Source of the DNA: Eledone cirrhosa | Lineage: Eukaryota | NCBI GenBank assembly: GCA_964016885.1 | Contig: OZ024743.1 | Coordinates: 191,456,001-191,520,000 of the forward strand | Direction of reading: 5' to 3' | Length of the DNA: 64,000 bases | Part shown: positions 998 through 61,730 of the stretch, piece by piece | Position numbering within the stretch: position 1 is the stretch's first letter | Layout of the letters: each line of letters opens with the position of its first letter | Program-made: the position numbers and the translations under genes | Notes under the pieces: generated by a model | Seen by the model: the letters and a program-made list of their open reading frames with translations, nothing else | What the model was told of the DNA's origin: nothing | The model's database searches: none

Positions 998-1007
998 CCT
1001 AGAAGAA

Positions 1008-1050
1008 CATACATACATACATACATACATACATACATACATACATACAT
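1008..1050. repeat. (CATA)n microsatellite between two Dong elements
   Basis: Perfect tetranucleotide array. Confidence 0.98.
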
Positions 1051-2400
1051 AAGGAGAGAACCAGAACTGAATACCTCAGAAGAGTAAAGAAAATATGGTC
1101 ATCAGAACTGTCAGCATACAACAAATACATTGCCCACAATACTTATGCTGTGCCAATTCTAACGCCAACATTTGGCCTGCTGAACTGGTCATTGCAAGAA
1201 ATAAGTGAGATGGATGTTAGAACTCGAAAACTTCTCAGTGTTACTGGGAACTTTAACATCAATGGTGATGTGGATAGGCTATACTTCTCACGCAAGGAAG
1301 GTGGCCGGGGTCTAACATCAATATTAACAACATATGAGACCCGGATAGTAACACTGAAGCAATACCTTCAACAGAGGAAAAAGGTTGGCAACCATCTTGC
1401 CCAGGTTTATGAGCATAAAAAAAAATATCATTAGAATAGCGACTGATCTGGAGGAGAGATATGGAATAAAGCCTGATATAAATCTCTCACCCAGAGAAAT
1501 CGGAAGATCCTATTCAATGTTCAAACAAGATAAAAAAATTGACCAATTTACAGAAACAGTTGTGCATGGATACTTGAGGCGTAAAACACAGACCATAGAG
1601 GGGATAAACCACTCAAAAAGCCTGGCATGGAGTTCCGACAAGTTTATGACATCACACCTTGAGGGATATCTCTATGCAATACAGGAACAAGAACTCCCTA
1701 CCAAATATCTGCTGCACAAAAGCGGAGGGCCAGCAGCTGACAATAAATGTAGGCTATGTAAAACAAAGATCGAGGATGTAAGCCACATTGTTGCCAGCTG
1801 CGAAAGAATGTCATCTCGCTACTACCTTCCCATGAGACACGGTGGGATAGCTAGAACCATCTGGAACGCACTTCGGAAAACAAAATTAACAACAAACGCG
1901 GAAGAATATATTGAGACAGATGGCACTAAGGAATACTGGTGGAACCTGAAAATAAAAACTGCCACCAAATTAAAGCACAACCGGCCTGATATTGTTGTTT
2001 GGGACCACACATTGAAAACGTGTTCTGTTGTGGAGATCAGCTGCCCACTTGATGTAAACGTTGTCAGAAAAATACAGGAGAAGGAGGACATCTACGGACG
2101 ATTGATGAGGAGTTTACAAATCCAGTATCCAAGATACACCTTTAGCTTCATACCCATCATTATTGGAGCTACGGGTTATATACTAACCGGCTTGGACCAA
2201 AGTATGACTGAACTTGGATTTGCGGACAAAAAGCGCAGCTCCCTAATTCATAGTCTACAAATGGCTGCGATAGCTGGCACCATCAAAATTTACAAAACAT
2301 TCTTGCGATTCAAGGAATGACAATTTCTTTTCTTTTACAACCTTGCCACCAGGAAGGTGGCCGGTCAAAAAAATATACTCGAAATTAAGAGAAAGAGAAA
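1051..2400 (+). mobile_element. 5'-truncated R4/Dong-type RLE non-LTR retrotransposon (subfamily beta)
   Basis: ORFs 1150-1434 and 1385-2320 carry the post-RT motif RLYFSRKEGGRGL, a CCHC knuckle and an RLE domain. Short 3' UTR is shared with 28395-28477 and 56885-56962. (CATA)n lies on both sides. Confidence 0.93.
1385..2320 (+). pseudogene. C-terminal part of Dong/R4 ORF: CCHC zinc knuckle plus restriction-like (PD-D/ExK) endonuclease
   Basis: CRLCKTKIEDVSHIVASC, RH, NRPDIVVWD..VVEISCP..KEDIY motifs. Frameshifted relative to 1150-1434. Confidence 0.92.

Positions 2401-3709: not shown

Positions 3710-3744
<35 letters not shown>
3450..3744. repeat. (AGT)n/(GTC)n degenerate trinucleotide array followed by (TA)n
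   Basis: Direct reading. Confidence 0.95.
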
Positions 3745-3747
<3 letters not shown>

Positions 3748-4010
3748 GGAAAAAATGAAACGAAATTTCATTTCCCACTCTTAGTACGGCTGTTACTTAA
3801 ATATAAGTATGTATACGTACATACATATATGTATACAGACGTACAGTAGTATGTATATATATATATACATACATGCACACATATATATATGTACGTATGG
3901 ATTCACCGAACATTTATTATAATGCTCAGTGTGTTTGTAAACAAACATCCCTTATTAAGCCGTAGCGTCTAGCAACCATCGTTGCTCGTTTGTTCAACAC
4001 TTACATAGGA

Positions 4011-6615: not shown

Positions 6616-6627
6616 CACATATATATA

Positions 6628-7542
6628 CGAGGTGTGTCAGAAATGTTCCAGGACTGATGTCACAAAAGATTTATTTCAAACCCAAACTTCACACTAAGAG
6701 TTTTCTCCTTCAAAGTAATCCCCCTGGAGTATGTGACTGTAATCTTAGCTCTCTGCAGCGATCAAACTTTTTTCTTCAAAATTGTATATACATGTGCTGT
6801 TTCAGGTCATCAAGCAATGAGCACAGAGCAACGAACAAACTTGAAGTTTCTGGTACGGTTGGGGAAAACTCCATCAGAAGCAGTGGGATTGATGCCGCAA
6901 GTGTATGGAGATGAGACGATGTCACGCTCACGTGCTTTTGAGTGGTGCAAGAGGTTTAAAGAAGGACGCGAGGACGTGGAAGATTACCCCAGGAGCGGAA
7001 AGCCCTCAACAACCAGGACTGAGGTCAACGTTGAGCGCATCAAGCAGATGGTGCGTAGCGATCGTCGGCTGACTGTTCGACTGATGGCAAATGAGCTGGG
7101 CATGAATCGGGACAGCGTCTGGAAGATTCTCACTGAAGATTTGGACATGCGGAAAGTCTGCGCGAAGATGGTGCCAAAACTGCTAAACGATGACCAGAAG
7201 GGTCGACGCATGCAAGTGTGCCAGGACATCCTCGAGCGTCTTGAAACCGAACTAGACTTGCTACGTACTGTCATCACCGGTGATGAGTCATGGATCTTCG
7301 ACTACGACCCGCAGGGGACTCGTTTTGGAGACGTGGACGACATCAAAAAGGCCGTGACGACGGAACTGCGGACGATCCCGGAAGAATCCTTCCAGGAGTG
7401 CATGCAAGCGTGGCGGAAAGGGATAGAAAAGTACATGAGACCCCAGGGGGATTACGTTGAAGGAGAAAACTCTTAGTGTGAAGTTTGGGTTTGAAATAGA
7501 TCTTTTGTGACATCAGTCCTGGAACTTTTCTGAAACTCCTCG
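6628..7542 (+). mobile_element. Mariner DNA transposon, internally deleted, with about 100-bp terminal inverted repeats and TA target duplication
   Basis: ta|cgaggtgtgtcagaaa at the left end and tttctgaaactcctcg|ta at the right. Inverted repeat 6628-6728 vs 7441-7542. Transposase ORF inside. Confidence 0.95.
6733..7476 (+). CDS. Mariner transposase with in-frame deletion of most of the DD34D catalytic domain (likely start ATG at 6817)
   Basis: HTH region (EWCKRFKEGRE..RSGKP), MVPKLL (WVPHEL motif) and TGDESW join directly to the C-terminal GTRF...QGDYVE. The HDNA and YSPDLAP motifs are absent. Confidence 0.85.
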   Translation: MTVILALCSDQTFFFKIVYTCAVSGHQAMSTEQRTNLKFLVRLGKTPSEAVGLMPQVYGDETMSRSRAFEWCKRFKEGREDVEDYPRSGKPSTTRTEVNVERIKQMVRSDRRLTVRLMANELGMNRDSVWKILTEDLDMRKVCAKMVPKLLNDDQKGRRMQVCQDILERLETELDLLRTVITGDESWIFDYDPQGTRFGDVDDIKKAVTTELRTIPEESFQECMQAWRKGIEKYMRPQGDYVEGENS

Positions 7543-7559
7543 TATATATATATATATAC

Positions 7560-7915: not shown

Positions 7916-8221
7916 AACAAAGTCAATCTGTAAACGCAGAAGTGGATATTTCAAAAAACGTTGCAACCGGGGGAAGACAGGAAGACGATACTTTGGTTCG
8001 TGGAAACGTTTGCTGGCAAAGAATGGGAAAAAACGAATATAATACGTCATTAATAGGAGCGGTGAAAAACAATTACGCGCAAAGACAGAACCACGTTTAT
8101 GGTATAAAAGAGGTCGTAGACTAATGTTCTCTTAGGTGGTTCATAGAGACGTTCTCTGGCAATGAACGAAAGAAACGAAGATAATACGTCATATGTGGAG
8201 CGTGGAGAACAATAGCACGCA

Positions 8222-8853
8222 TTTGTTGGTATAACCCACCATATAATATGGAGGTGGCCACACCATTAGCTAAGTTCTTTCTTTCCCTTATTACGAAACA
8301 TTTTCCCCCTACACATAAATATAGTAACATTTTTAATAGAAATACTATTAAAATTTCTTACTCTACGACTCCTAACCTTGCACATAACATCACAGCTTCA
8401 AATTTAGCTAAACTACCTAGCCGTAGGAACACGTGCAACCCTGTAGTTAGTACCTACTGTAATTGTAGGAATCGGGTTGATTGCCCCCTATCTGGGAAAT
8501 GCCTCTCTAGTAACATTGTCTACAAATGTAAGGTTGTAACACCCACGTCCCGTAGGGCCTACATAGGGTTAACCGCCAATAGATTCAAGCAGCGTCTTTA
8601 CATGCATACCCATTCTTTTCGTTACCCTCTAAGAAGGAATATGACAACCACACCCAATATAAGTTACACTGGGAGATCCTAGCTAGGGCTAGATCGTATA
8701 ACGGAAATAAAAGACCATGTGACCTCTGCGCCGCTGAGGCCCTGGAAATACTCTACGCCACAGACCACATCTTAAACAAAAAATCTGAGTCAATTTCGGC
8801 TTGTAAACATAAATTGCACAAAACTTTCCTGTATTACAGCCCCACGTTATAGC
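8222..8853 (+). pseudogene. Penelope linker plus GIY-YIG endonuclease fragment
   Basis: HFPPTHKYSNIFNRNTIKISYS, CNC....CPLSGKCL..NIVYKC..AYIGLT..FKQRLYMH. After a break the sequence continues as CDLC..E....LNKKSE..SACKH. Confidence 0.88.
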
Positions 8854-24649: not shown

Positions 24650-24688
24650 CATACATACATACATACATACATACATACATACATACAT

Positions 24689-25291
24689 GGAGGCTGCCAA
24701 CTCGTTTTCGAGTGCGGCCACTACTTTATATCCATGTAGGAGAACCCCTACCGATGCGCTGAACGAGTGTGACTTTTTAGTCCAGCCAGCGACTTGAAAA
24801 CTCTGGTACAAACACTACACTTGTGACAATTATTGACACATAGAGCTGGGCCCATGGTACCATGTGACGACAAGTGCAGAGAGATCTCCAGATACAAAGC
24901 AATGTCTGTGCCGTGAAGCTTTTATAGTGAGCAAAGGCACTGCACAAAGCCAGTCCCACTCTCTTAACCAAGATGATATTTACCAAAAAGAAGAACAAGT
25001 CAACATCATTGGATACCATCAGGGTTGCAGGTCTTATATCAGAGTTTTCATTCTCCTAGAATTTTGACAAAGGCTAAGGGGTCATCTCTCCCGGTGATTT
25101 TGGATGGCCATTGACTCTTACGAGCTCCTTTGCCCTTTGACAGGTTTTGTTTTTAGTCCTGCAGGATGTTCAAAGTCACCCTCCTCACCAAGAAACCTTG
25201 GTGGGGTTGCCAGTTTAGTCGCCAACGACCCGACCATGAGACAGGTTGTACTGAGATACTTGTTACCAGTAGCACCAACTGGTGACCTGAC
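24689..25291 (-). mobile_element. Full-length non-autonomous bipartite RTE-derived element (type B, about 600 bp) with (ATGT)n tail
   Basis: Four copies in the window. Contains the RTE 5'UTR-like motif ctaggagaa(g)gaaaactctga, a remnant encoding CSVCTRVFKSLAGLKSHTRSAHR*, and a 3' hairpin actcg-aaaa-cgagt. Confidence 0.85.
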
Positions 25292-25317
25292 ATACATACA
25301 TACATACATACATACAT

Positions 25318-25635
25318 GGTGGCTGCCAACTCGTTTTCGAGTACGGCCACTACTTTATATCCATGTAGGAGAACCCCTACTGATGCGCTGAACGAGTGTG
25401 ACTTTTTAGTCCAGCCAGCGACTTGAAAGCTCTGGTACAAACACTACACTTGTGACAATTATTGACACATAGTGCTGGGCCCATGGTACCATGTGACGAC
25501 AAATGCAGAGAGATCTCCAGATATAAAGCAATGCCTGTGCCGTGAAGCTTTTATAGTGAGCAAAGGCACTGCACAAAGCCAGTCCCACTCTCTTAACCAA
25601 GATGATATTTACCAAAAAGAAGAACAAGTCAACAT
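25318..25635 (-). mobile_element. 5'-truncated type B RTE-derived element
   Basis: Near-identical to 24689-25005. (CATA)n on both sides. Confidence 0.88.
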
Positions 25636-25717: not shown

Positions 25718-27820
25718 TTGGGGTGTGCTGAACAACTCCTAATCAACAAAACTGTGATGTCGGAAGTTTCGAAAACTTAGGAGGAATATGGCTACAGTCT
25801 GGCTGGACTACAGGAAAGCTTTCGATTCTTTTCCCCACTCTTGCATGATAGAGGCCCTCTGACTTACTAAACTCCCATACATTATTATCAGAGCCATAGA
25901 GAAGCTGTCTTCTTCTTGGGCTACTATCCTAAAGTTAAAGATAGAGAAGGAAGACTATTTTCACTGATAAAATAGAATATCACAGGGGTATATTTCAAGG
26001 AGATAGTCTCTCTGTGATATTATTTATCCTGTCATTAAAACCCCTTGTCCTTTCTGCTCAAGAAATGTGAAGGATACATCATTGGATCACAGGAGGACAA
26101 AAATACGAACCTAACCCATAATTTCTTTGTGGATGATCTGAAACTATATGCCAAGAACATAGATGGGATGAAGAAAAATCTTGACCTGGTTACAACATTC
26201 TCAAAGGATATATGAATGGAGTTTGGCCAAGATAAGTGTTCATATATGACTGTAAAGCGGGGACAAACTACAAACTAATCTGGCAACATTGTCATCAATG
26301 GCCTAACTGTTTCATCTGATAAGAACTTCTACAGACAACTGGGGATAGATGAGAACATATCATATAATGCTATCTGTAATAAGGAACGCGTAACCAGGGA
26401 ATACTACACCCGATTAAGAAAGATCTGGTCATCGGAACTCTCTGCGCACAATAAAACAGTAGGTCACAATGTGTTTGCTGTGCCTGTCCTAACACCAACG
26501 TTTGTAATACTCAATTGGATGATAGACGAAGTTCGAGCAATTGATGTTAGAACTCGAAAAATACTAAACAAGACCGGAAACTTACACATCTATAGAGACA
26601 TAGACCGCCTTTACTTGAAACGTAAACAGGAGGCAGAGGCCTAACATCAGTCCAGACAGCATTTGAATGTCGCATCATATCACTCCGACAACATCTACGA
26701 ACCTCGAAGCGTAGGAGCCCGTCTCTCGAGCAAGTCTATCTGCATGAAACAAATAAGATCATGAGAGTTGGGAAGGAACTCCTTGAGAGATATTCCCTGT
26801 GCGATAATCAAAAACTCACACCCAGGAATGTCGCTCAGCAGTATCGCAGTGAATCCATGGATGAAAAACTGCATGCCTATCAGCAAAAAATCATGCATGC
26901 ATATGTTGCCAGGAAGCTCCAGAGTGAGAGTAATATAGATAAAGAAAGTAGTCTATCTTGGACCAACAACCGCTATATTGGCTCCCACTTTGAAGGATAC
27001 GCTTTTGCAATCCAAGAACAGGAAATAAACACGAAATACCTGATTCACAAAAGCGATAGGTATGCAGGCAAAACACCTAGATGTGACAACAAGTGCAGAC
27101 TCTGCAGAGTTAACATCGAAGATATCACCCATGTCATAAGCAGCTGTCCAAAGATGTCATCGCGGTACTATCTACCTATGAGGCATGATGTAGTGGCCAA
27201 AACACTGTACAATGCAATCCGTAGAAAAGATAGCCTCGATAATAAACACATTAAAACCTACAGCAATGTAGAAGAGATACATATACATAATATGACCAGA
27301 TATAATGATATGGGACAGGGAAAAAAAGACATGCACAGTAGTCGAAGTTAGCTGCCCAGCAGATTCCAATATAATATCAAAGATTAGCGGAAAGGAGAAT
27401 ATTTATGCAGAACTAATGAGAAATCTGCAGATACTCCACTCTGACTATACCTTCAGATTTATGCCTGTGATTATTGGGGTACTGGGATATGTTAGTAACT
27501 GCCTCAATACAAATCTTGAGAATCTGGGCTTCACAGAAACAGAAAGAACACGACTAGTTAGGAAATTGCAAGTACAATCCAAGTGGAACAGTAAAAATAT
27601 GTAAAACATTCCATACAAAGCGTATGCACATGCACACATATAACTCAAAACATCCACATCCACACATACAATAACATCCATAGCTACGTATGCAAGCAGA
27701 CATGCATACATATCTACCTAGTTGATGTGTAAATTCCAATGAGAGTGTCTTGTAACTATGTTAGAAACCGGCTCTCTCTCTCTATTGGCAAACATTTGTG
27801 AAATTATAAAACCAGAAGAA
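25718..27820 (+). mobile_element. 5'-truncated, frameshifted R4/Dong LINE (subfamily alpha)
   Basis: RT motifs (WLDYRKAFDS, GIFQGDSLS, FVDDLKLY), CRLCRVNIEDITHVISSC, RLE remnant, and a 3' UTR ending aaaccagaagaa(cata)n. Confidence 0.92.
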
Positions 27821-28910: not shown

Positions 28911-28936
28911 ATTTATAAAATAATATAACCATATAT

Positions 28937-28980
28937 GATGGCTGCCCCCTCGTTATCGAGTATGGCCATTGCACGAGAAG
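28937..28980 (-). mobile_element. 3' terminus of type C RTE-related element
   Basis: Reverse complement ctcgtgcaatggccatactcgataacgagggggcagccatc matches 61654-61692. Confidence 0.85.
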
Positions 28981-29076
28981 AAAAAAAAAAATAAAAAAAT
29001 AAATAAATAAAAGATAAAATAAAATAAAATAAAATAATAATAATAGTAATAATAATAAATTAAAAAAAAAAAAAAG

Positions 29077-29147
<71 letters not shown>

Positions 29148-29150
29148 CAT

Positions 29151-29760
29151 GGTGGTTGCCAACTCGTTTTCGAGTACGGCCACTACTTTATATCCATGTA
29201 GGAGAACCCCTACCGATGCGCTGAACGAGTGTGACTTTTTAGTCCAGCCAGCGACTTGAAAACTCTGGTACAAACACTACACTTGTGACAATTATTGACA
29301 CATAGTGCTGGGCCCATGGTACCATGTGATGACAAGTGCAGAGAGATCTCCAGATATAAAGCAATGCCTGTGCCGTGAAGCTTTTATAGTGAGCAAAGGC
29401 ACTGCACAAAGCCAGTCCCACTCTCTTAACCAAGATGATATTTACCAAAAGGAAGAACAAGTCCACATCATTGGATACCATCAGGGTTGCAGGTTGTTAT
29501 ATCAGAGTTTTCCTTCTCCTAGAATTCTGCCTTGACAAAGGCTAAGGGGCCATCTCTCCCAGTGATTTTAGATGGCCATTGACTCTTAAGAGCTCCTTTG
29601 CCCTTTGACAGGTTTTGTTTTTAGTCCTGCAGGATGTCCAAAGTCACCCTCCTCACCAAGAAACCTTGGTGGAGTTGCCAGTTTAGTCACCTACGACCCG
29701 ACCATGGGACAGGTTGTACTGGGATACATGTTGCCAGTAGCACCAACTGGTGACCTGACA
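29151..29760 (-). mobile_element. Full-length type B bipartite RTE-derived element
   Basis: Aligns end to end with 24689-25291. Confidence 0.88.
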
Positions 29761-29936
29761 CATATACATATATACATATATACATACATATATACATACA
29801 AACATACATACACATACACACACACATATACACACACATACATTAATAACAATAATAATAATAATAATAATAACGACAACAACAATAATAATATACATAT
29901 TCATATATATATACACACACGCGCACGCACATAAGC

Positions 29937-29968
<32 letters not shown>

Positions 29969-29976
29969 GATAGCAA

Positions 29977-32900
29977 CTAACAGTGCTGCGATCGAATGTG
30001 GCTTTTTAGCCCAGCCAATGATCTAAAGTGTATTGCACAGAGTCGGCAACCAAAACATTCACTGGGAATAGTCGGCTGTGGTTGGAGTTCGTGTACTTTT
30101 GCATGTCGCTTGAGCCCTCCTGCTGATTTACATTCTCTACCACATGTTTGGCAAGCATGATGAGTAGCATCTCCAACAGCAGCCTGGTAGTCAACCACTG
30201 GTCTTACTTTATGACTGCGAAGATGACTTTCGAGTCCAGCTTTGCTTAGGCAGAGTCTCGCACAGACGCTGCATGTCAGCACCATAGGAGGACCCTCGCC
30301 GTCTGGAAGTACATCAGCAATGCCCTTCCTCACATCCCGCTTTACTTTGTCGTGTGCGATTCGAGATGCCACAAAGGCAACTTTTCCCTCATATACAGTC
30401 TTTCTCCATTTATTACGATCAGCAGCAAAAATTTCCCATGTATCAGCAGAGATGTTAGCGTCTTTCAGAGAGGCTTTCGAGGAATCCTTATACCTCTTTT
30501 TTGGTTTATGTGGCGGTCGTTTTCCTTTAACCAACTCTCCATAGAAGAGTTGTTTGGGTATTCTAGAATCCTTCATCCTGGCAAGGTGACCACTCCAACG
30601 GAGTCGTTGCTTAAGCACAAGAGCTTCTATACTGTCACTCATAGAGCTTTCCAAAATCTCGACATCACTGATGTGGTCCATCCAGTGAACGCCATGGATC
30701 CGTCTGAGACACATCTGATGGAAACGCTCCAATTGCTTAAGGTGGTGTCGATATGTGACCCAGGTCTCGCAGGCATAAAGAAGACAAGAGAGTACACATG
30801 CCCTGTACACCCTTACCTTTGTCCTCCTGCATATGTCTCGCCGACCCAGAGTCGCCTTTCTAGCTTTTCGAAAGCATCACTTGCTTTCCTAATCCTAAGT
30901 GAGATTTCACTGTCAAGGTTGCCGTATCGATTGACAGTGCTTCCCAGGTAGACAAACTGATCAACCACTCCAAGGCGTTTGCCATACACATAGATGTTTG
31001 GTTCAGTGTACTGCTTACTAGGGGCAGGTTGGTACATGACGACAGTTTTCTTGAGACTGACAGTCAAACCCAGGGCAGTGCAAGCGTCAGAAAATGCATT
31101 CAAAATGTGCTGCATATCACTCTCTGTGTGCGCTACAAGATCGCAATCATCTGCATACAAGAGGTCTCTTATGATTGATGTAAACACATTTGTCTTCGCA
31201 GCAAAGCGCCTGATGTTAAATATGCTGCCTGAGGTTCGATATCGGATGTAAACACCATGCTCGCAATTCCTGAATGCAATACAGAAAACCATTGCAAAGT
31301 ATATGGCAAACAGGGTCGGTGCTGGAATATCCCCCTGTTTCACTCCATTTTTTACTGAGATAGGCTCCGACATGTTACCTCCGACATTAACCCAAGCCTT
31401 CATGTCGTCATGGAAAGACCTAACTAAAGCAAGGAACTTATCAGGGCAACCATGTTTCTGGAGAACCTTCCATAATGCATCTCTGTTGACAGTATCGAAA
31501 GCCTTTGTCAGATCGACAAGAACCTGATACAGATCCAAGCCTTGTTCAATGCATTTCTCCTGGAGCTGTCTAGCTGAGAAGATCATATCAGTAGTGCCGC
31601 GTCCAGTACGAAAACCAGATTGACTTTCAGGAAGAACACAATCTGCAATGTGTGTCAGCAGACGGTCCAGAAGCACCCTACATAAAACTTTCCCTACGAC
31701 AGAAAGCAATGATATACCTCTGTAGTTCCCACAATCATTCCTGTTACCCTTTCCCTTGTACAAGACCACCATTATTGCATCTCTCCAGTCCTCTGGTACG
31801 GATTCATTAGCCCATATCCTTCCAAACAAAGAGTGCAGATGTTGCAGGAGTCTCTCACCACCATATTGTAGGAGCTCAGCATGTATGCTATCCATACCTG
31901 GAGATCTTCTACTGTTCAGTTTCGAAATAGCCACTGCAACCTCCACAAGCGTCGGAGGTTCTGCGAGAGCTACTTTCACAGGACTTTCTGGAATGAGATT
32001 GAGGAAATCTTCACTGACGACAGACGGCTTATTCAAAAGTTCATCAAAGTGCTCTCGCCACCTTCGTAGAATTCCCTGTGAGTCACGAAGAAGTTCTTTG
32101 CCATCCTTGCTGCGAAGCGGTGTCACCAGGGAAGAAGACGGTCCATAAACCTCACGCAAGAGACTGTACAACAGCTTTGTGTTATTGGAATCAGACGCAG
32201 TTTGTATCTCACCAGCCTTCTCACTCCACCACTGATCATTCATCTGAGAAAGACTCCGCCTAACACGTGATTTTACATCCCTGAGCTCCTCATGCAACGT
32301 ATTCCTCTCCTGTGGTTTTGCCGTCAAGTAACGTGACAGAGCACGCCTCTTATCAGCCAACAAGTCTTCTATATGTACATCATTCTCATTAAACCAGTCC
32401 TGATGTTTTCTCTGCACCAATCCCAGAACACGCCTGCCTACATCATAAACCGACTTTTTAAGGGTCGGCCAATCCTCACCAAGATCTGCAGCCTGCATCT
32501 CTTCTTCCAATGTCCTCTTCACATTTTTATCCTTAAGACGAGCAGCATTCAATCTTTTGGGCAGGGTAACACCAGGAGCCCGGATTTTACGTTTGGTGAT
32601 TAGTTTCACTTTTGCGCGTAACAGGCGGTGGTCCGTCCAGCACTCAGCTCCACGAAAAACACGAACACACTGCACATCCTGTCTGTCACGCATCCTGACT
32701 AGGACGTAGTCCAAAAGATTCCATTCCTTAGATGCAGGATGCATCCATGTGGTCTTGAATTTGTTCTTTTGTTGGAACATGGTGTTGGTAACACACAGAT
32801 CCAGATCCTCACACATCTGCAGCAGGAGCATACCATTGCTGTTACACCTTCCCACCCATGCCTTCCGATTACATTCCATGTGTTAAAATCCCTACCCACT

Positions 32901-33400
32901 CTAGCATTAAAGTCACCAAGCACGATGACTTTGTCTGCCTGAGGGATATTTCTTAGAACACCTTTCAAGGCATGGTAAAAGGACAGTTTTTCTTCATCGA
33001 CAGAATTCATAGTTGGAGCATACACACTCACCGGGGTAGCATATCTTATTTGTCCAGCGGAACTCTCATGGACATAAGACGCTCACTAATCCCTACTGGG
33101 AATTCTTCTAATTTATTCACAAGTACAGTCTTAACAGCAAATCCTACCCCAGCCTCTCTTCTGGTTCCTTCATCTTTTCCTTTCCAGAAGAATGTATATT
33201 CTCCACAAAATTCCGTAAGATGACCATCTCCAGATAACCTCGTCTCAGACAAAGCCACGATGTCAAGATCGTAACGTCGAAGCTCCTTTGCAACAAGAGC
33301 GGTCCTTCGTTCAGGACGCTCCAAGGAATCCCTGTCAAGCAGCGTCCGTACGTTCCAGCAGCCAAGACTAAATGTCTTGTTTGGCTCTATTACAATGGCA
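29977..33400 (-). pseudogene. RTE/BovB-clade LINE ORF (APE endonuclease, reverse transcriptase, three C2H2 fingers), frameshifted
   Basis: WNVRTL, ALSETR, GDFNARVG, TDHRL (APE). DLTKAFDTV, GVKQG, LLYADD (RT). LRWSGHLARM. C-terminal CxxC..GL.SH.R.H three times. Confidence 0.95.
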
Positions 33401-33856
33401 CGATGACGAGCGGGCCCAGGCTGTGATAACTTGGGGCCCCTGCCCTTATTGCCAATGATCTTTTTTTGTTCCAGAACCTAAATTGCCAATTATCTCTTTT
33501 ACATTGTTCTGGAACATCATTGAATTTGAAAAAAAAAAAAAAGTAATAATAATTATAGTAATAATAATAATAATAATAATGATTTCATTTATTAGCCACA
33601 AGGGCCGACATGTAGGGGACAATACAAAGACAGGGACAGTGGGGTTCACAATAAGGTCGAGTAAAAGTGCACAATGGCAAAACTAATTTAACAATGAAAA
33701 TATAAAAATATAAAATAAACTATACAAAATATAACAAAATAAATTCCCCGATAGGGGGTGGACGACCCTGGGGTGATTCGGGTACCACACCAATCCTGAA
33801 CCACCCTGCGCTTCTAGGGCACCCAGGAGAGCACCCCTCTCCTCAAGTTAGCTAGC

Positions 33857-36800
33857 CTATAGGCGCATGGTCAGAGTAGGCCCATTCACACGAGCCATTC
33901 TCGCCACATTCACCCACCTTTTAGCAAATGTACTGGGGGGCAGCACTTCTCTCTCCACCCTCACCCTCCTTTCCAGGTGAAACTTGAAGAAGTTGATGAG
34001 AGATTGACCGAAGAGAAAAGTGTCTGTCTTTAGTCCTTTCAACCTGGTCCACCATATAATCTCTTTCGCAACTGCCACCAGACAGAGGAAAATGTCCTGC
34101 TCTTCCTGACCTAAGGAAGGCGGCGGCTCGATCTTCACTATGGACTCGGCCGATAACCGGATTCGTTCCACACGCGACAGTAGCTGTTCGACATAACTCC
34201 ACAAGTCAGTAATGCACGGACATTTGACAAGTGCGTGCAGAACGGTTTCGTCGTTCTGTGCTCATCTTGGGCAGGTCCGTCTGACAGCACTTCCGTGCCT
34301 GTAGAGTTTATCCCGAACCGGCAGTGCCCCCCGGTAGCACTGCCAAGCGAGGGATTTCTGGAAATTGTCCATCGTCCCCGGCTCAAAAGTCCTCCGGTAC
34401 AGACTGGTCAGTTCGACTTCGTCGAGGCCCAAAGCTTCTCCGAGTGCGTCATCGCACTTGCCCACCACTAATCCTCTATAGAACTCGAGAGTGGAAGTTC
34501 CACTGATCGCATTGCCCGCTTGGTAGAGGGCAGTGAGTGCCTGGCAACATTCCAGGTGCCAGTCACCCAGTCTCGGTCTCTTCTTGACCCAGGACTGCAG
34601 CTCAGTCAAAGAAATGAGCTGCGGAAAGGCCCGTCTGATAAACGGCGACCATACCTGTTCACCATTGAGACAGAATATCTGGAGATGTCGCAGCCTCAAC
34701 GCATGTCTGCGCATCATTAGCCACGGCATGCCCAGCCCTCCGCGTAGAGGGTGCTGGCAGCAGATGGACCGCCTCACCAACGGAACTTGTCCCCTCCACA
34801 AGAATTTGAAGAGGAGCCGTTCCAACTTGACGAGGCGCGGACGGGGGCAAGGCACGACGGTTAGGAGGTAATAGATGACGGACGCGATGTACGCATTCGC
34901 TACCTCCGCGCGACCTTTCAGTGATAGCTTCCTCCCAGCCCATTTTTAGGTGAGACTGGCTACTCTGCTCGTTACCTCGTCACAATTCTTTTCCACCTGG
35001 AGGTCTGGTCCGAACCAAACCCCAAGCAACTTTACTGGTCCGTCCGTCCAGCGCCCCACGACGCTGTTGGACGGCATGGGCTTGCCTTTCCAGGTTCCGA
35101 GCTGCAAGCCCACCGACTTTTCCGGGTTAAGTTTGGCTCCTGTCAACCTTTCATATTCCTTCAATAAGGTGCCGCCCACCTCGATTTCTGAGGTGTTCGA
35201 CACCATCACGGTGATGTCGTCCGCATAAGCCGACACCGCCTTTCCACGTCCCGGTTCGAGCGGGATGCCCTGCAACAGCTCCAGCTTCCGCAGTAAGGGA
35301 AGAGAGAGGGCACCCTTGACGGACCAATCGGGAGAGCCGAAATGGTTCCGAGAGGTGGCCATTAACCTTGACCACCGAGCGTGTGCCGCTGTGCATTGCA
35401 ACGATCCAGCTTCTAAAGACAGGGCCGAAGCCAGCTGCTTTGAGGACAAAATCCAGATACCGATGGTCGACCCTATCGAATGCTTTCGATTGATCTAAAT
35501 TGATGAGTGCCCCACCGAAGCCAGGTTTACACCCTACCCTCTCTATGATGTATCGCATGAGGTGGAGATTGTCGTGTATGGACCTGGCTGGGATTGCGCA
35601 GGTTTGCGCCTCCCCAACCAAATCCTCGACGACAAGCGCCAATCTCTTTGCTAACACCTTGGCCAAAATCTTAAACTCTGTTTTGAGCAGAGTTATGGGC
35701 CTGAAGTTGTCTAATGTATCCCTCTTGTTCTCGTCTTTCCTTATCAGCGTCACCACTCCCCTGCTCACAGAACTGGGAATACTCCCATTCTGCTGCCAGT
35801 TACAGTAGAGTGCTTCGAGGAGTTCGGAGAACAAGTCTGGCATATTTACGTAAAGCTCGTAGGGCAGGCCATCCAAACCGGGTGACTTGCGCCTCATGCA
35901 GCCGACAAGGGCGTCCTGAATTTCGGCTGAAGTAATCGGCCTTTCGCAGCGCTCAGCGTCGACCGTCGAGATGCGCGGCAAGCCGTCAAGGTAGGGACTG
36001 AAATCCGCTACTCTCTCTGACTCGCCACTCTCCCCGAACAACCGAGCAAAGTGCTGGCGAAAGGCCTCACACATCCGCTTGGAATCGCTTATCTCGTGTC
36101 CGTCTCGGTCCGCCAAAGACCGAATTGTGGTTTTATTACCACGCTGCGCCTCCGCCACGCGGGCCGATCGAACAGCTTTAGTTCCCTCGTTTCTCAGCGC
36201 ACGCGCCTTAGCTCTGACAATGCAACCTTCGTGTTTGGCATTGAAGAAATGGTCTAATGCCATTCTCGCCGCTAGCACGTCAGTTGCGATGCCACTACAA
36301 ATAGCCTCGTCTAACTTATCTACCAGCTCCCCCTCCTTTCTATTTTTCTCTAACGCTAGTTCTTTGCTGAACTCTATCGAAGTTACTCTAATCTCTCTTT
36401 TGAGAGCCCCCCACCATCTGTTGTTGATGATCCCTCCTGTCAACTTTTCCTTAACTAACTTATTGACTCGGTCCCTGTAAGCCTTACGTGCCGGAAATGA
36501 CATGTTCAGCTTCCGGTAACCCGGTCCTAACCTACGCGTTTTATTTAGGTCGACCGTACAGATCACAAATTTGTGATCTGAATAGGCGACCGTTTTAAAA
36601 AGTGGACAGCCCACACTATTTCTGTCTATGTTCCTAATGAAGATTCTGTCTATATACGATCTAGATGACCCCATTCGGTTGGTCCATGTCCATACTGGCA
36701 CATTGGGGAAATCTAGTCAGACAGTTGGAACTGGCTGAGTAGGTGCTTGAGGCTTTTGCACCCCCCGTTCCTATCGGCTACTCCCACACAATCCCAGCGT

Positions 36801-37243
36801 GCGTCTAAGATGCCATTCCAGTCCCCCGCTAACAGTAAAGGGCGAGACGTACCCAGAAAGGTCTCCAGGCGCCTAAAGAAGTCAGGTCGTCCGGCCCCTG
36901 TAGGGGCGTAGACGACCAGCAGTCTAAAGGCACCACCTTTGCTACTGCTCACATCCAAGACCACCAACTTACCGTCCGGGTCCCGGAAGATCGACCTTAC
37001 CTCGAGATCCAGTCCTTTCCTAAACAGCACTGCCACCCCACCCCCCATTCCCGGCCTGCTAACAGATGCGAAGATCTGATAGTCGTCGAAAATGGGGGCT
37101 AGTGCACGCGTGTCGGAAATTCTGGTCTCGCTTACGGCAATCACATCCATTTCCAGCGACCGGAGGTCGTTGAGCAGGCGACCCTGCTTCCAGGGTGACC
37201 CCAGGACGCGAACATTTAAACTTCCTACTCTTAATATGGCCAT
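33857..37243 (-). pseudogene. Tx1/L1 ORF2 (APE, RT, C-terminal CCHC), disrupted by stops and frameshifts
   Basis: SLNVR, SETR, GDWN, SYIDR, SDHK; LDQSKAFDRVDH, RQGCPLS, AYADD; CPR....ETVLHALVKC. Confidence 0.93.
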
Positions 37244-37252
37244 ATTGGTAAG

Positions 37253-38467
37253 CTAAGAGAGAGAGAGGGAAGGTTTACTTACCTCCCGGGTCTTGTGAAG
37301 GTCGGGTGGTTCGACCTCCATGGTTGGTGGGGTTTCTTTTGGGAACCCCTTTAAAAGTCTTGATGTGGGTTTCACTTTCGGGTTTCCCACGTCTTGAGGA
37401 AAGCTCTCTCGAATTTCTTTGAAAGAATTGAGTGACATTCGGACCAGAAGCAAATCTTCTGGCACGCAAAATGTGCTCATTTCAAAAATCTCCCCCTCTG
37501 TTTGAATGTCCTCGCTTCGCGCTAAGAGGACCATCAGTTTATCGTTGGCCCTTCTGACAAGTACGAAGTTTTTAACATTTTCTTGGTGTGGTTTTATTTG
37601 TTTTCGTTTTGGTGAAGGTGGTGGCGATGGTTTTGGTGGTGTTGTTTTGGGTATGTCTATGTTTGTTGTAGGTGTGGTGTCTGCAATTTCAGGTATTTGT
37701 GTGTTTATTTGTACTTGTGTTTGTTTAGGTTGTTTGCGTTTCGGGGATTGTGGAGGTGGTGTCGATGTTGCTGATGGTGCTGATGTTATTGGGGAAGTGT
37801 CTGCGTTAGTGGTGTCTGTATTTTTTGTTGTGTGTGTTTTTGTGTTTTGTTGGGGCTTTTTTTTTGTGAGTTTTCTCTGTTTTTTTGCACTTTTGGGTTT
37901 TCCTTCATCTTCGCTGCTGGACGACAAAGGGTCTGTGTCTGTGAGTGTCTCTGTGTCTGTGTGTGCGTTTATTTTATTTTTTTGTCTATGTATATACATA
38001 GTTGGGGGGGTAGGGGGAGTGGGAGAGCTTTCCCCGTTTTCTCCTTGGATTGGTTTTGGTGTTGGTGGTGATCCGGCTGCTTTTGATATTGGTGTCCGTG
38101 TTTTTGTTGATGTTGTTTTTGGTGGTGGTGGTGGTGGTGGTGCAGCTTTCCGTGCTGACACTGGCGTTGGCAACAAAGGAGGTTTGCGACCCCCTGCATT
38201 TTTGCGCTGAGGGCAGAAGGCTTGAAGATGCGTGGCTTCCCCGCAAACGAAGCAGCGTGGCCTTCTTCCGTCAATCATTAGTTGGATTGTTGTCCCGTCC
38301 TGCAGGCGGGGAGAATCTGGGATGTTATTTATATCCTCCGGTTTCATTTGGAGAAGAATCTCCAAATCCATTCCGGACCAGTCTTCTCTCTCTGTCCTTT
38401 TGATGTCCAGGAGGGTGGTGTCTGTCCCCTCCTCGATTACGCATCCCAGCAGCCACCATATGTTCAT
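37253..38467 (-). CDS. Tx1 ORF1 (gag-like CCHC knuckle plus Pro/Thr/Lys-rich region), N-terminally truncated
   Basis: CFVCGEATHLQAFC. 404-aa open frame ending 9 nt before the ORF2 ATG. Confidence 0.85.
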   Translation of the reverse strand: MNIWWLLGCVIEEGTDTTLLDIKRTEREDWSGMDLEILLQMKPEDINNIPDSPRLQDGTTIQLMIDGRRPRCFVCGEATHLQAFCPQRKNAGGRKPPLLPTPVSARKAAPPPPPPPKTTSTKTRTPISKAAGSPPTPKPIQGENGESSPTPPTPPTMYIHRQKNKINAHTDTETLTDTDPLSSSSEDEGKPKSAKKQRKLTKKKPQQNTKTHTTKNTDTTNADTSPITSAPSATSTPPPQSPKRKQPKQTQVQINTQIPEIADTTPTTNIDIPKTTPPKPSPPPSPKRKQIKPHQENVKNFVLVRRANDKLMVLLARSEDIQTEGEIFEMSTFCVPEDLLLVRMSLNSFKEIRESFPQDVGNPKVKPTSRLLKGFPKETPPTMEVEPPDLHKTREVSKPSLSLS

Positions 38468-38488
38468 TCCTTAATAATAATAATAATA

Positions 38489-38793
38489 GTACACTATTAA
38501 TGATTATTAATGCACTCGTGCAATGCCTGTGCGTGACGAATATTTTTTAAGTGAGGAAAGACTGTGCACTGAGCCAATCCCACTCTCTGAGCGACAGTAG
38601 CTATAACCCGAAAAGAAGAAAAGATCAAGATCATCGGTAACTACTGAGCCGCAGGTTTTATATCGGAGTTAACCCAGTTTCCTGAGATGCCTTCTCCTAG
38701 AAGAATGCCCTGACAAGGGCTAGGGGTCCTTCACTCCCAGTGGTTTAACTGCGCGATCGGGCATCCAGCCCGATTATTTCTATGTCCCCGCGC
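38489..38793 (-). mobile_element. 5' part (RTE 5'UTR-like) of type C element
   Basis: Reverse complement aligns with 61354-61640. Confidence 0.88.
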
Positions 38794-38920
38794 AAAAAAA
38801 AACAAAAAAAAACTCACTTATTGACACTCATACGTACGACATACACACACACGCATACATATGCGCGCACACAGCAACACATACATACAAACAAACACAC
38901 ACACGCTACTCTACTCACTT

Positions 38921-38960
<40 letters not shown>

Positions 38961-39035
38961 TACCGTCATTACTGATACAAGATTACAAGATATATATAAC
39001 CATATATACATACATATATACATACATAGATAGAC

Positions 39036-42000
39036 AGTCAACGCGATAAGTCGCATATTTAGGCTTGGGAGACTATTTATTAAATTTAAGATGAATACTA
39101 TCTCCGACAGTAATGCCACAACTACAGCCAGGTTGAATAACTGGTTATTCTTCTAACTATCCCTTCAGAAGACACCTTTTATTCGAATTCGTAGAGATAT
39201 CCGACTAAATACATAATTCATTTTACAAGGATTTGCTACAAACAGCATGACTGAACACAAAATCAACAAAAAAATTAAGGAAGTATCGAAGACAAATAAC
39301 AAGGAAGGTAATCAAACTTTATTCAGTTGTAGCTACAGAAGAAACCGAAATTATAAATCGCGTTTCTCTTGGAGTTGCGAACTTAATAATGATTTATTTA
39401 ATTGTTATAAAATGGCAAAAAACAATCCCTCCATTGGCTATATGAATAGAATGAAGCTACACTGGGACGAAATGCACCCAGAGCTAAATTATTTCACAGC
39501 GAAACAATTACGTCAACAAGCGACGTTTGTTGAACGTAAAAATAAGATAAATATTATTAATTGTAAGTCCCCCACAACAAACATGGAATCAACAACACGT
39601 GCTACAGATTGCCATGCTACTAGACTTCCTAGCAGCCAGGTCGAACAGCGCCTTGAAACAACTATGTCTGTAAGAAACTTGACACCACCTGTACCATCTA
39701 AGTCTACCTCGAATGCTGGGGAAAACACTATCGATAATAATAATAATAATCGAATAAATGTGATACCACGTATACCATCCGAGTCTACCTCGACTTTGTG
39801 GAAAACACTATCGATAATGATAATCAAAAGCATAAACAATTGAAAATTTCCCTCAACGAAATCTTCCAGACAGAAATTAACTCATTTATAAATATCTCTC
39901 GTGCTGAACGTGTTAAAATGACAATGGTGAATAAAAAACCAAATAATGAAATACTATGTGTTATTGACGAAATAGGGGATGAATATTTATGACGGATAAA
40001 AACCCCAACGTTTTAGCAAATCAACGCCTTAGCAATGACAGTGAAGCATTATCTTGGTGATAGTAGAGATATTAACAAGAACAAAACACCACCAAAAATA
40101 CCATCATATATAACTAAAATAGAAAAAAAGAGTGCTGTCATACGAAAAAACATAGGACATGTGACAATGCTCCTTACATGCAAACAAACACAAAAAAACC
40201 TCACTCCTCACCAACAAAGATTGAAAAATAAAATAGAGACGATGTTTGGTAACAGTAGAACCAGAACTCTCCAATATAAGCTGATCACCCTCAAACAAGG
40301 ATTGAAAGCTGTTAGCGAAAAACGCCGATACCTGAAGAAGGTAGATGAGAGAAAAGTGCTTAATAAAAGATTCAGACGAAACGAAACATCAGTCTATAGA
40401 GGTATGAAGGGCAAAATAATAAGTGTCACTGAGGCCCCATCCCAGAAAGACATAGATTACTTTTGGAGAAAAATATGGGGTGAAAAGAAGAATTTCAACC
40501 AAGATGCAGTGTGGCTAAGAGAAATCCGAAAGAACTATTGCTCCTACACTACAACAAAAACATACGAAATAAGTGAGGGTACCCTTGTGATAGGAAAACT
40601 CCAAGATAAGAAAACACCAGGAAGAGACATGATTGTCGGCTACTGGTACAAAAAACTAATATTCTATCGGAGGTATCTTACCAACAAGTTATTAAGGGAG
40701 ATAAACGTTTACCAGAATGCTTGACATTAGCACAAAAGTTACTGGTCCCCAAGAACAAAGACACCCACTTGGCAAAAAAATGCCAGAACCTGATGTATAA
40801 GATGTATACAGCCTGCCTGAACCTATTCCTCCAAGATCACTGTGAAAATAATAACATCATCACAGATGAACAAGCAGCTGGAAAGAAAGGGGTTTGGGGA
40901 TGTGCTGAACAACTCCTAATCAACAAAACTGCGATGTCGGAGGTGCGACAACTTAGGAGGAATATGACTACAGTCTGGCTGGACTACGGGAAAGCTTCCG
41001 ATTCTGTTCCCCACTCTTGGATGATAGAGGCCCTCCAACCAGCTAAAGTCCCAGACATTATTGTCAGAGCCATAGAGAGGTTGTCTTATTCTTGGACTAC
41101 TATCCTAAGGTTAAAGACAGGTAGGGAGGACTCTATTTTCACTGATAAAATAAAATATTGCAGGGGTATATTTCAGGGGACAGTCTCTATGTGATATTGT
41201 TCATCTTGTCATTAAACCCCTTGTCCTTTCTGCTCAAGAAATGTGAGGGATACATCATTAGCTCACAGGAGGACAGAAATACGAACCTAACCCATAATTT
41301 GTGTGGACGACCTGAAACTCTATGCCAAGAACATGGATGGGATGAAGAAAAATCTTGACCTGGTTACAACGTTCTCAAAGGATATAGGAATGGAGTTTGG
41401 CCAAGATAAATGCTCTTACATGACTGTAAAGCGGGGAAAAACAACAATCCAATCTAGCAACATTGTCATCAATGGTCTAACTGTTTCACCGATATCTGAT
41501 GTGGACTGCTACAGATACCTGGGGATAGATGAGAACATATCCTATAATGATATCTGTAATAAAGAACGCGTAACCAGGGAATACTACACCCGAGTAAGAA
41601 AGATCTGGTCATCGGAACTCTCTGCGCAAAACAAAACAGTGGCTTACAATGTGTTTGTTGTGCCTATCCTAACACCAACGTTTAGAATACTCAATTGGAC
41701 GATAGAAGAAATCCGAGCAGTTGATGTTGGAACTCGAAAAATACTGAACAACACCGGAAACTTCCACATCAACAGTACACATAGACCGCCTTTACTTGAA
41801 TCGTAAACAGGGAGGCAGAGGCCTAACATCAGTCCAGACAACATTTGAATGTCGCATCATATCTCTCCGACAACATCTACGAACCTCGAAGCGTAGGAGC
41901 CCGTTTCTCGAGCAAGTCTATCTGCATGAAACAGATAAGATCATGTGAGTTGGGAAGGAACTCATTGAGAGATATTCCCTGTGCGATAATCAAAAGCTCA

Positions 42001-42729
42001 CACCCATGGATGTCGCTCAGCAGTATCGCAGTGAATCCATGGATGAAAAACTGCATGCCTATCAGCAAAAAATCATGCATGGATATGTTGCCAGGAAGCT
42101 CCAGAGTGAGATTAATATGAAAGAGTACTGGTGGAATGTTCCAGTAAAAACCCAAATAAAATGCAGCATAACAGACCAGATATTATGATATGGGACAGGG
42201 AGAAGAAAACATGCACAGTAGTAGAAATTAGCTGTCCAGCAGATGCCAACATAATATCAAAGATTAGTGAAAAGGAGAATATTTATGCAGAACTGATGAG
42301 AAATCTGCAGATACTCTACCCTGATTACACCTTCAGATTTTTGCCTGTGATTATTGGGGCACTTGGATATGTTAGTAACTGCCTCAATACAAATCTTGAG
42401 AAGCTAGGCTTCACAGGAATAGAAAGAACACATCTAGTTAGGAGATTACAAGTACAATCCATTAATGGAACAGTAAAAATATGTAAAACATTCCAAAGAT
42501 TTTGCATCTAATAACTGCATATACACATGTACAGATACAAAGCATATACACATGCACATATACAACTCAAAACATCCACACATACAATAACATCCATATC
42601 TACACATGCAGACATACATATCTACCTAGTTGATGTTGTGTAAATTCCAATGAGAGAGTCTTGTGTCTATGTTAGAAACCGACTCTCTCTCTATTGGTAA
42701 AACTTTGTGAAATTATAAAACCAGAAGAA
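39036..42729 (+). mobile_element. Near full-length R4/Dong LINE (subfamily alpha), decayed, with internal deletion of the CCHC region
   Basis: ORF pieces 39247-42511: N-terminal W....N..L..CY.....GYM.RM...W...HP, RT motifs and the RPDIMIWD..EISCP RLE. 3' UTR followed by (CATA)n. Degenerate CATA repeats upstream. Confidence 0.93.
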
Positions 42730-45742: not shown

Positions 45743-46204
45743 TTACGGAATCTTGAGAAAGCCATATTTCGGTATGCAGATGCTTTCGAAATCGTTCCCC
45801 AAGATATTGTTGTCTTTTAAGTTCCAAATTAAATGTGAAAGTGAAGTGGAAGATTTTTTATTGGATCTCTTAAATGTATGTTTATGGTTATACCAGCGTT
45901 CTTTGAATTTTGTAGAAGTGACACCAATATAGTTAAATACTTTGTCTCTAGATCTAACTGTGCATTTATAAATTACGTTTTTGTCTAAGCAATCATTTTG
46001 TAAAGGGCAGTTTGATTTAATTCTACAGTTACATTTTCTGGAGTTGTTCGGAACGGTACTATTATTCTGAATATTGTTGTTAGAAATATTGTTGTTAGAA
46101 ATACTGTGGTTAGAAATATTATTATTGCTATTTTGGTTAGTTTGGTTAGGGTTTAAATTTAAGTTTCTATTATTAATTCTATTTATATTTTGTGCTATGT
46201 TCAT
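45743..46204 (-). pseudogene. Penelope GIY-YIG endonuclease fragment with Asn-rich linker
   Basis: CNCRIKSNCPLQNDCL..NVIYKC...NYIGVT..FKERWYNHKH. Confidence 0.88.
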
Positions 46205-46556
46205 AGTAGTAAAGTAGGATAGTTTTATAGTGTGTCTGTTAAAAAGAGAGTAGTATCTGTGGGCTTTAGGAAAACATTTATCTAGTGCTTTAAAGAATAG
46301 CTTTGCTAAAGGTGTTTTAACGCTTAATGAGAAAGGGGGAGAGTACCAAATAATATTTCTAGTTATAGTTTTTTTGTTTGGTGTTTAAGTCAAATTGTTT
46401 ATTATTATTATAATTAATTCTAGGATGATTTGTCATGTATTGTTATCTATGTATTTAATTTTATTCGAGTATCCTGCTCTATATAAAGCTTCATTGTAAT
46501 ATTCTGCCTTATCATCAAAAATATTTTTATTAGCAGAGATGCATGAAATCCGTTAT

Positions 46557-55962: not shown

Positions 55963-56098
55963 CATACAAACATACAAAATACATACATACACACTCATAC
56001 ATGTATGCATGCATAAATACATACATACATACATACATACATACATACATACATACATACATACATACATACATACATACATACATACATACATACAT

Positions 56099-56531
56099 GG
56101 TGGCTGCCAACTCGTTTTCGAGTACGGCCACTACTTTATATCCATGTAGGAGAACCCCTACCGATGCGCTGAACGACTGTGACTTTTTAGTCCAGCCAGG
56201 GACTTGAAAACTCTGGTACAAACACTACACTTGTGACAATTATTGACACATAGTGCTGGGCCCATGGTACCATGTGACGACAAGTGCAGAGAGATCTCCA
56301 GATATAAAGCAATGCCTGTGCCGTGAAGCTTTTATAGTGAGCAAAGGCACTGCACAAAGCCAGTCCCACTCTCTTAACCAAGATGATATTTACCAAAAAG
56401 AAGAACAAGTCAACATCATTGGATACCATCAGGGTTGCAGGTGTTATATCAGAGTTTTCCTTCTCCTAGAATTCTGCCTTGACAAAGGCTAAGGGGTCAT
56501 CTCTCCCATACAAAGGCTAAGGGGTCATCTC
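56099..56531 (-). mobile_element. 5'-truncated type B RTE-derived element with a 21-bp duplication at its truncation point
   Basis: Aligns with 29151-29560. caaaggctaaggggtcatctc occurs twice. Confidence 0.88.
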
Positions 56532-61121: not shown

Positions 61122-61311
61122 GTCGAGTCACTCTTGAGTGTTACTGGTAACATGTAACCCAGTACAATCTGTCGCATGGTCGGATGGTCGGCGACAAAAC
61201 CAGCAACCTCACCAAGTTTACTTGGTGAGGGGGGGGTTGGACATCCTGTAAGACAAAAAAAAACAAATCCTGACAAACGGCGGAAGAACTCATGAGTCAA
61301 CAGCCATCCAA

Positions 61312-61349
<38 letters not shown>

Positions 61350-61730
61350 ATACGCACGGGGACATAGAAATAATTGGGCTGGATACCCGACCGCGCGGTA
61401 AACCACTGGGAGAGAAGGACCCCTAGGCTTTGTCAGGGCATTCTTCTGGGAGAAGGCAACTCAGGAAACTGGGATAACTCCAACATAAAACCCGCGGCTC
61501 AGTAGTTACCGATGATGTTGGTCTTTTCTTCTTCTCGGGTTACCGCTACTGTCGCTCAGAGATTGGGATTGGCTCAGTGCACACTTTGAAAAAAAATCTC
61601 CACGCACAGACATTGCACGATAGCATTAATTGATAATTATTAATAATGTTATATCGTGCAATGGCCATATCGATAACGAGGGGGCAGCCATCATGTATGT
61701 ATGTATGTATGTATGTAAGTATGTATGCAT
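61122..61730 (+). mobile_element. Full-length non-autonomous RTE-related element (type C) with internal (TG)n and (ATGT)n tail
   Basis: Head, middle and 3' end are homologous to type B. No ORF remnant. Flanked by ATGT repeats. Confidence 0.85.

Follow-up and report, generated by a model that had tools for sequence, protein, structure and literature searches.

We analyzed a stretch of 64,000 nucleotides of Eledone cirrhosa (contig OZ024743.1, positions 191,456,001 to 191,520,000), further called the window. It contains one copy of an RTE family, here named X, which carries two nested insertions. A type B short element lies inside the X copy, and further type B copies and one type C element were found outside it (Table 1). 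These elements carry a pair of clasp arms of 8-14 bases, of which one lies in the 5'UTR and the other directly before the 3' terminal hairpin. Three related non-LTR copies (RT, zf-RVT) with tetranucleotide microsatellite ends are located elsewhere in the window (1003-2400, 25718-27819 and 40017-42728), and a mariner-type transposase frame (Pfam HTH_48, HTH_32) flanked by inverted ends is present at 6619-7551. Frames at 8185-8682 and 45743-46384, the second one without a Pfam match, we take to be like Penelope-type GIY-YIG ends.

Table 1. Family X copy, its nested insertions and the related short elements identified in the window
Feature	Positions	Strand	Basis
X-copy segment with the 5' arm and H1/H2	38472..38991	-	89-95% identity, uninterrupted copies L129 and L137
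Predicted 5'UTR hairpins H1 and H2, just upstream of the X clasp	38548..38652 (approximate limits)	-	RNAalifold, five family consensuses
Family X 5' clasp arm, 11 nt, cattgcacgag	38515..38525	-	914 genome matches of arm plus flank
Nested LINE, presumably Tx1/L1-like, inserted into the X 5'UTR at its TAT tract, 4,888 nt	33584..38471	-	
Family X RTE ORF region: APE, RT, three C2H2 fingers; frameshifted	29977..33583	-	
Nested type B short element in the X microsatellite 3'UTR, 617 nt	29146..29762	-	
Type B 5' clasp arm, 14 nt	29353..29366	-	
Type B 3' clasp arm	29181..29194	-	
Family X 3' clasp arm, ctcgtgcaatg	28967..28977	-	2,359 genome matches of arm plus flank
X 3' terminal hairpin with the beginning of the microsatellite tail, directly abutting the clasp	28930..28966	-	
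Type C short element with a head, a 5'UTR core (97% like X), the clasp and the 3' hairpin	61122..61698	+	
Type C 5' clasp arm	61611..61622	+	
Type C 3' clasp arm	61652..61663	+	
Two more type B copies, in tandem	24679..25635	-	blastn
Type B copy, 5'-truncated, both arms present	56089..56508	-	

The initial annotation of this DNA had reported three pairs of arms, and we found all of them at their coordinates. The type C stem is formed by 12 Watson-Crick pairs and closes a loop of 29 nt. The type B stem has 14 pairs, including two G-U pairs of the sense strand, and closes a loop of 158 nt; the frame in this loop ends, as had been noted, with a C2H2 finger that resembles the one in the RTE ORF (compared by eye). 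The third pair, that of X, has 11 pairs and its arms lie 9,537 nt apart. Both of its arms had been described as changed compensatorily relative to type C. We observed such a change at one pair only (position 11, T-A in C and G-C in X), and the first ten pairs are the same.

The interval of 9.5 kb had also been regarded as a tolerated cargo loop, and this reading is not supported. The interval is the sum of 4,032 nt of RTE interior, the 4,888-nt LINE and the 617-nt type B element. Since the two nested insertions account for its length, 9.5 kb is not a loop size of the family. A cargo loop at the level of the family was rejected; the fetched X copies mostly have arms about 3.9 kb apart. Among the loops proper to a family, sizes run from 12 nt to about 3.9 kb. 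The nested LINE retains a remnant of ORF1, APE and RT in broken frames (Pfam Exo_endo_phos, RVT_1) and is missing from uninterrupted X copies; we take it to be Tx1/L1-like from its resemblance. Most likely, the 9.5 kb interval is not cargo but an ordinary RTE LINE split by this LINE and by a type B element.

Among the first 100 listed genome matches of each X arm we identified approximately 28 same-strand pairs, and 20 of them were fetched. The arms were 3,698-4,079 nt apart in 15 of these, 4,431-5,483 nt apart in three and about 9.6 kb apart in two. The ORF and 3'UTR aligned to the window copy in one block in 18 of the 20 (94-97%). Copy L137 contains one open frame of 1,181 codons. Family X has a single ORF, in which Pfam Exo_endo_phos is followed by RVT_1, and no second ORF, that is no ORF1, was found between the 5' arm and this ORF. 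Because of the open frame in L137 and the APE, RT and C2H2 domains in the pieces present in the window, X is, judged by its sequence, an autonomous RTE family. The 3' ends of both X and D consist of a short hairpin and a microsatellite tail, not poly(A). The arms thus flank the ORF in autonomous RTEs, which was expected from the initial annotation; this was seen in families X and D and in the metagenome elements described below. The motif before the arm resembles, by eye, those of RTE-3_AMi and RTE-1_PSi, and metagenome element L403 is close to both there. The homologue search gave no protein carrying an RTE element name.

The TAT tract of the X 5'UTR is a recurrent insertion site. It is occupied by the Tx1/L1-like LINE in the window and in L139, and by what is apparently one other element in L126 and L295. 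The X copies of L123-L134 and L141 have in common a long 5' extension (300-900 nt upstream of the 5' arm) that contains microsatellites and part of another short repeat. No B/C head was found in the fetched stretch of these copies, which looks like 5' switching. A short family in which X-type arms lie 10-40 nt from each other was also considered and rejected, as one fold-back copy was the only example. In this copy (L061, 1500-1560) the X 5' arm region is folded back perfectly and joined to nested-LINE-like sequence, and RTE ORF sequence precedes it.

Families B, C, D and E are amplified as units, and all four of these short families retain both arms. Genome-wide patterns gave at least 25,244 matches for B, at least 3,400 for C, 1,124 for the 3' end of D and 466 for E. 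Families D and E were recognised first from their 5' side, in the flanking DNA of fetched loci. We viewed 30 ends of D, of which 11 were located behind an ORF, 17 were short forms and two were neither. Both arms of D were found 3.4-3.8 kb apart around an ORF in three of 20 fetched loci. The short D is composed of the autonomous partner's 5'UTR up to the start codon and of the 3' end of this partner. Most of the 3' arm is retained in 49 of 51 shortened D variants, and one recurring form (29 of the 51) has both arms around a loop of 12 nt. For B, two positions at the end of the 5' arm were tested, and 53 of the 25,244 matches deviate at both.

An autonomous partner of B was not found with two exclusion patterns (53 and 379 matches), whose listed matches were short copies with mutations or deletions, and the 60 loci scanned contained no new ORF. 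The genome pattern search did not find an autonomous partner of E. At 76 ends the C-type 3' arm is present but the C loop is not, and most of the 20 that were fetched carry pieces of an X-like ORF; none of the 20 retained its own 5' arm within the fetched stretch. Older X-like ends, often with a short 3'UTR (L283-L302), carry the C-type 3' arm, which suggests that type C may be derived from an earlier subfamily of X.

B, C and D share a head of approximately 190 nt with long hairpins visible by eye (61122-61312, 29570-29762 and L182). One locus each of C, B, X and D was compared with Rfam (E<=1). This gave simple-repeat matches only, below threshold, and no ribozyme match for these four loci. 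Older and more decayed short families of the same build were noticed in L196 (minus strand, 1770-2150), L006 (minus strand, 1760-2100), L358 and L116.

Copies of the five families were extracted with anchors placed outside the arms (17 X, 71 C, 142 B, 28 short D, 3 long D and 17 E); the D and E copies had been collected with patterns that hold the 3' arm. We observed that in all five families the 5'UTR arm is complementary to the arm directly before the 3' hairpin. Cognate consensus arms paired at 57 of 60 cells, which was the best result of 120 permutations (mean 46.8). Changes on both sides between families were found at positions 4, 7, 8, 9, 10 and 11. When the partner was slid by 1-3 nt, the number of pairs fell from 43 of 45 to 9-21. 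The pairs at positions 2-11 that are not Watson-Crick (B3, B5, short D4, D11) are sense-strand G-U pairs; D has no pair at position 1. Since X and C are 97% alike, the comparison involves about four independent families. The covariation of the arms between families, which had been proposed from the window, was supported by this permutation of cognate and non-cognate ends. As the arms change in step, the RNA likely folds back on itself, with the two arms paired.

Shuffled sequences reached the 11-pair helix of X in 2 of 1,000 cases and the 9-pair helix of D in 15 of 1,000, and the tests across families are much stronger than these shuffles of single families. A chance match of 10 pairs to the D 3' end is present in the D ORF. 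Among rare variants of the arms, those that break a pair outnumbered those that keep it in C, short D and E, and the two were about equal in B; such variation within families is expected of dead copies. Of four contig sets aligned to type C, those of one run only gave coverage, and they carried no information on compensation. In the RNAalifold consensus H1 covaried strongly, with many changes on both sides, and the clasp was placed directly against the 3' hairpin. When a 3.7-kb D element was folded without constraints, the clasp was formed (9 of 10 pairs). For full-length X the minimum-energy fold lacked it (0 of 11 pairs; 5.2 kcal/mol above the optimum). Mean probabilities of the clasp pairs, calculated for up to 15 copies per family, were 0.88 for C, 0.60 for short D, 0.25 for E and 0.15 for B, and the folding programs do not recover the stem in X, B or E.

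We searched the genome for the X 5' arm joined to the 3' hairpin within 60 nt and obtained nine matches. All of them were deletions of the whole ORF with no ORF behind the tail, and each was a single copy with its own junction. Each junction leaves the element 4-25 nt downstream of the 5' arm and re-enters it in the final few bases of the 3' arm, and these products have lost the greater part of the 3' arm. Five control positions of X gave one match (ORF start), none at three positions of the ORF interior and none in the upstream 5'UTR. Ends cut at the 3' point of the deletions numbered 84, of which 30 were classified: 15 were type C, 12 were plain truncations, two were local changes of the 3'UTR and one was among the nine deletions. 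Joins from the ORF interior to that cut point were absent from the 30 classified ends. Considering the AT-rich sequence at the junctions and the 12 plain truncations, microhomology may contribute to the junctions. The initial annotation had explained the bipartite forms by pairing of the 5' and 3' ends. The part of this explanation that concerns the origin of such forms agrees with deletions that break beside the stem, while the cargo slot of 9.5 kb is not retained.

Further, an alignment of 44 homologues led to 80 metagenome loci, of which 22 near-full-length ones were examined. We kept 17 elements and dropped five in which one end was missing (L411, L414, L415, L433 and L444). The metagenome loci presumably come from eukaryotic hosts. 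In their RT regions the 17 elements are 50-61% identical to X. In an unanchored scan 1,434 of 100,000 permutations matched or exceeded the cognate ends, and the best helix was the clasp in 7 of the 17 elements. The anchor rule used the 5' side only and was written after the sequences were viewed, with its misses retained in the count. With this rule 16 of the 17 elements were scored (L405 was given no anchor), and cognate ends reached -14.8 kcal/mol vs -9.2 kcal/mol for non-cognate ends (0 of 200,000 permutations). The ten less related elements gave 1 of 200,000 permutations in the anchored test. The anchor was misplaced in L409 and L412, where a helix of 8 pairs was seen by eye at the homologous site, and the clasp was weak in L402, L408 and L417; together with L405, four of the 17 elements show a weak helix or none. 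The opposite strand paired as well or better in 12 of the 16 elements, therefore the strand is not settled by the metagenome set. In family D, and likewise in L403, L410, L418, L423 and L429, the 3' arm overlaps the stop codon or lies right next to it. A scan of prokaryote genomes gave 25 matches; the RTE-like ORFs in genome bins L482-L490 and L503 are probably eukaryotic contamination and were left out.

In the part of the supplement of Kojima 2018 (PMC5786205) that we used, complementary ends of 9-10 pairs were found by eye in three published autonomous RTEs. These are RTE-3_AMi (282-291 with 3854-3863), RTE-1_PSi (177-185 with 3726-3734, with one both-side change vs RTE-3_AMi) and BovB (812-821 with 3797-3806). 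Stems at the junction were seen by eye in SINE-1_Pmo, SINE2_Gav, MonoRep87 and BOVA2 in the same material. The TS and Au-like SINEs, partners of plant RTEs, are described in the sections consulted of PMC6007223 and PMC3747384 as sharing only the 3' end, and the 5'UTRs of tobacco RTEs as variable in those of bioRxiv 10.1101/2022.11.04.512097. For these two reasons the clasp may be limited to a part of the RTE clade.

The arms occupy corresponding sites at the two ends of the elements, they covary between families, and whole ORFs are deleted beside them. That the pairing is real and selected we consider highly probable. The function of the clasp is most likely recognition of the template, with the deletions as a by-product. 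The paired arms would build one composite structure from both ends of the RNA, and the RTE protein would use it to choose its template. The helix would form after ribosomes clear the RNA and would stack on the 3' hairpin. A protein that prefers RNAs with two ends would exclude the 5'-truncated copies, which are more numerous. Reverse transcriptase that starts from the tail would meet the clasp after about 40 nt and could sometimes jump there to the adjacent 5'UTR, by which the ORF would be deleted. Deletion products that keep both arms could then amplify and become bipartite short elements. We regard this sequence of events, namely recognition of the helix with its flanking hairpins, jumping of the reverse transcriptase and amplification of two-armed products, as rather probable.

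A different function is possible, in which the clasp is selected for translation, export or stability through circularisation of the RNA from end to end, while bipartite elements are by-products of jumps and move without the clasp. The overlap of the 3' arm with the stop codon, or its close proximity to it, in D and several metagenome elements would suit such a function, deletions would cluster at the clasp with or without a later need for it, and plant RTE partner SINEs are apparently without a 5' piece in the accounts consulted. However, the non-coding short families retain both arms, recurrent arm variants in B and short D keep the pairing as G-U, and the only recurrent variant that breaks a pair, in C, falls at a CpG. 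The nine derivatives without the 3' arm are single copies, which also speaks against movement without the clasp, although this state is what most deletions would give anyway. We consider selection for translation, export or stability unlikely.

The arms could also be a scar at the level of DNA, that is an inverted copy made repeatedly by template switching or fold-back and without a function in RNA. One fold-back copy of the X 5' arm does exist, and both strands pair about equally well in the metagenome set. A scar would not explain, however, why the position is fixed across elements as distant from X as those of the metagenome set, why changes of single pairs are scattered in a conserved frame, and why the departures in this genome are G-U pairs of the sense strand; this origin seems very unlikely to us. 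Finally, complementarity could have arisen by chance and could be inflated by the choice of anchors and families. The metagenome anchor rule postdates the sight of the sequences, D and E copies were gathered with patterns including the 3' arm, and the D ORF shows that a match of 10 pairs to the D 3' end can occur by chance. On the other hand, D and E had been spotted from the 5' side, the anchor rule concerns this side only and its misses were counted, and even the unanchored test is passed at the frequency given above. Chance is thus an explanation to which we assign hardly any probability. For template recognition by a two-ended structure, which we prefer, a wider reading is plausible and is put forward tentatively. 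In animal RTEs generally, an end-to-end clasp may define the template, check that it is full-length, serve as the jump point from which SINEs arise and leave a slot free for a payload. The protein would then read a composite of the 5'UTR hairpins, the clasp and the 3' hairpin.

Bipartite RTE elements and RTE-mobilised SINEs are known, namely Bov-A/Bov-tA, RTESINE, WALLSI, AfroSINE and AviRTE SINEs (Kojima 2018, PMC5786205; Suh 2016, PMC4844689). Like the elements of the Bov-A type, B, C, D and E join a 5'UTR piece to a 3' end with a microsatellite tail. Internal deletion is described as occurring in few LINE groups "for unknown reasons" in the part of Kojima 2018 consulted (PMC5786205), and the accounts of bipartite RTE elements in the sections used of PMC5786205 and PMC4844689 concern the origin of the sequences, without pairing between the pieces. 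A 3' hairpin before the tail of RTE LINEs and Au-like SINEs is conserved, shows compensatory changes and was proposed as a recognition signal (Nishiyama and Ohshima 2018, PMC6007223, in the sections consulted). That hairpin is local, in contrast to the clasp, which adjoins it on the upstream side and has its partner strand in the 5'UTR, at a distance of 3.4-3.9 kb. RTE-2_OV of Octopus vulgaris (Petrosino 2022, PMC9115989), as described in the parts consulted, is similar to X in its single ORF with endonuclease, RT and a C2H2 finger, its UTRs of about 600 nt and its microsatellite-filled 3'UTR. The likeness is one of description, as no sequence matching X was found in the portion searched of the PMC9115989 supplement, and the text consulted there describes no RNA structure of RTE-2_OV. 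No report of 5'-3' pairing in RTEs was found in the sections consulted of PMC7245038, PMC8501958, PMC13708176, PMC4324840, PMC9115989, PMC4844689, PMC6007223, PMC3747384 and bioRxiv 10.1101/2022.11.04.512097. As far as these sections go, the bipartite elements and the 3' hairpin are already known, and the 5'-3' clasp is apparently undescribed.

If the proposed role is correct, it gives a concrete and mutable cause for the fact that RTEs, almost alone, repeatedly yield short elements made of the 5'UTR and the 3' end. With it, template recognition by stringent LINEs would reach beyond a local 3' hairpin to a structure made of both ends. Templates for gene writing with RTE-1_MD carry the payload between cognate 5' and 3' UTRs, and these UTRs were tuned by ancestral reconstruction and mutational screening (PMC13708176, in the sections consulted). 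A rule of pairing would tell which changes in UTRs must be made in pairs.

In flavivirus genomes and in Ty1 RNA the two ends are joined by 5'-3' cyclisation through a short long-range helix. The clasp is similar in that it would be an end-joining helix in a replicating RNA, although the classes of elements differ. Non-LTR elements are primed at the target DNA, therefore the clasp would serve the choice of template and not strand transfer.
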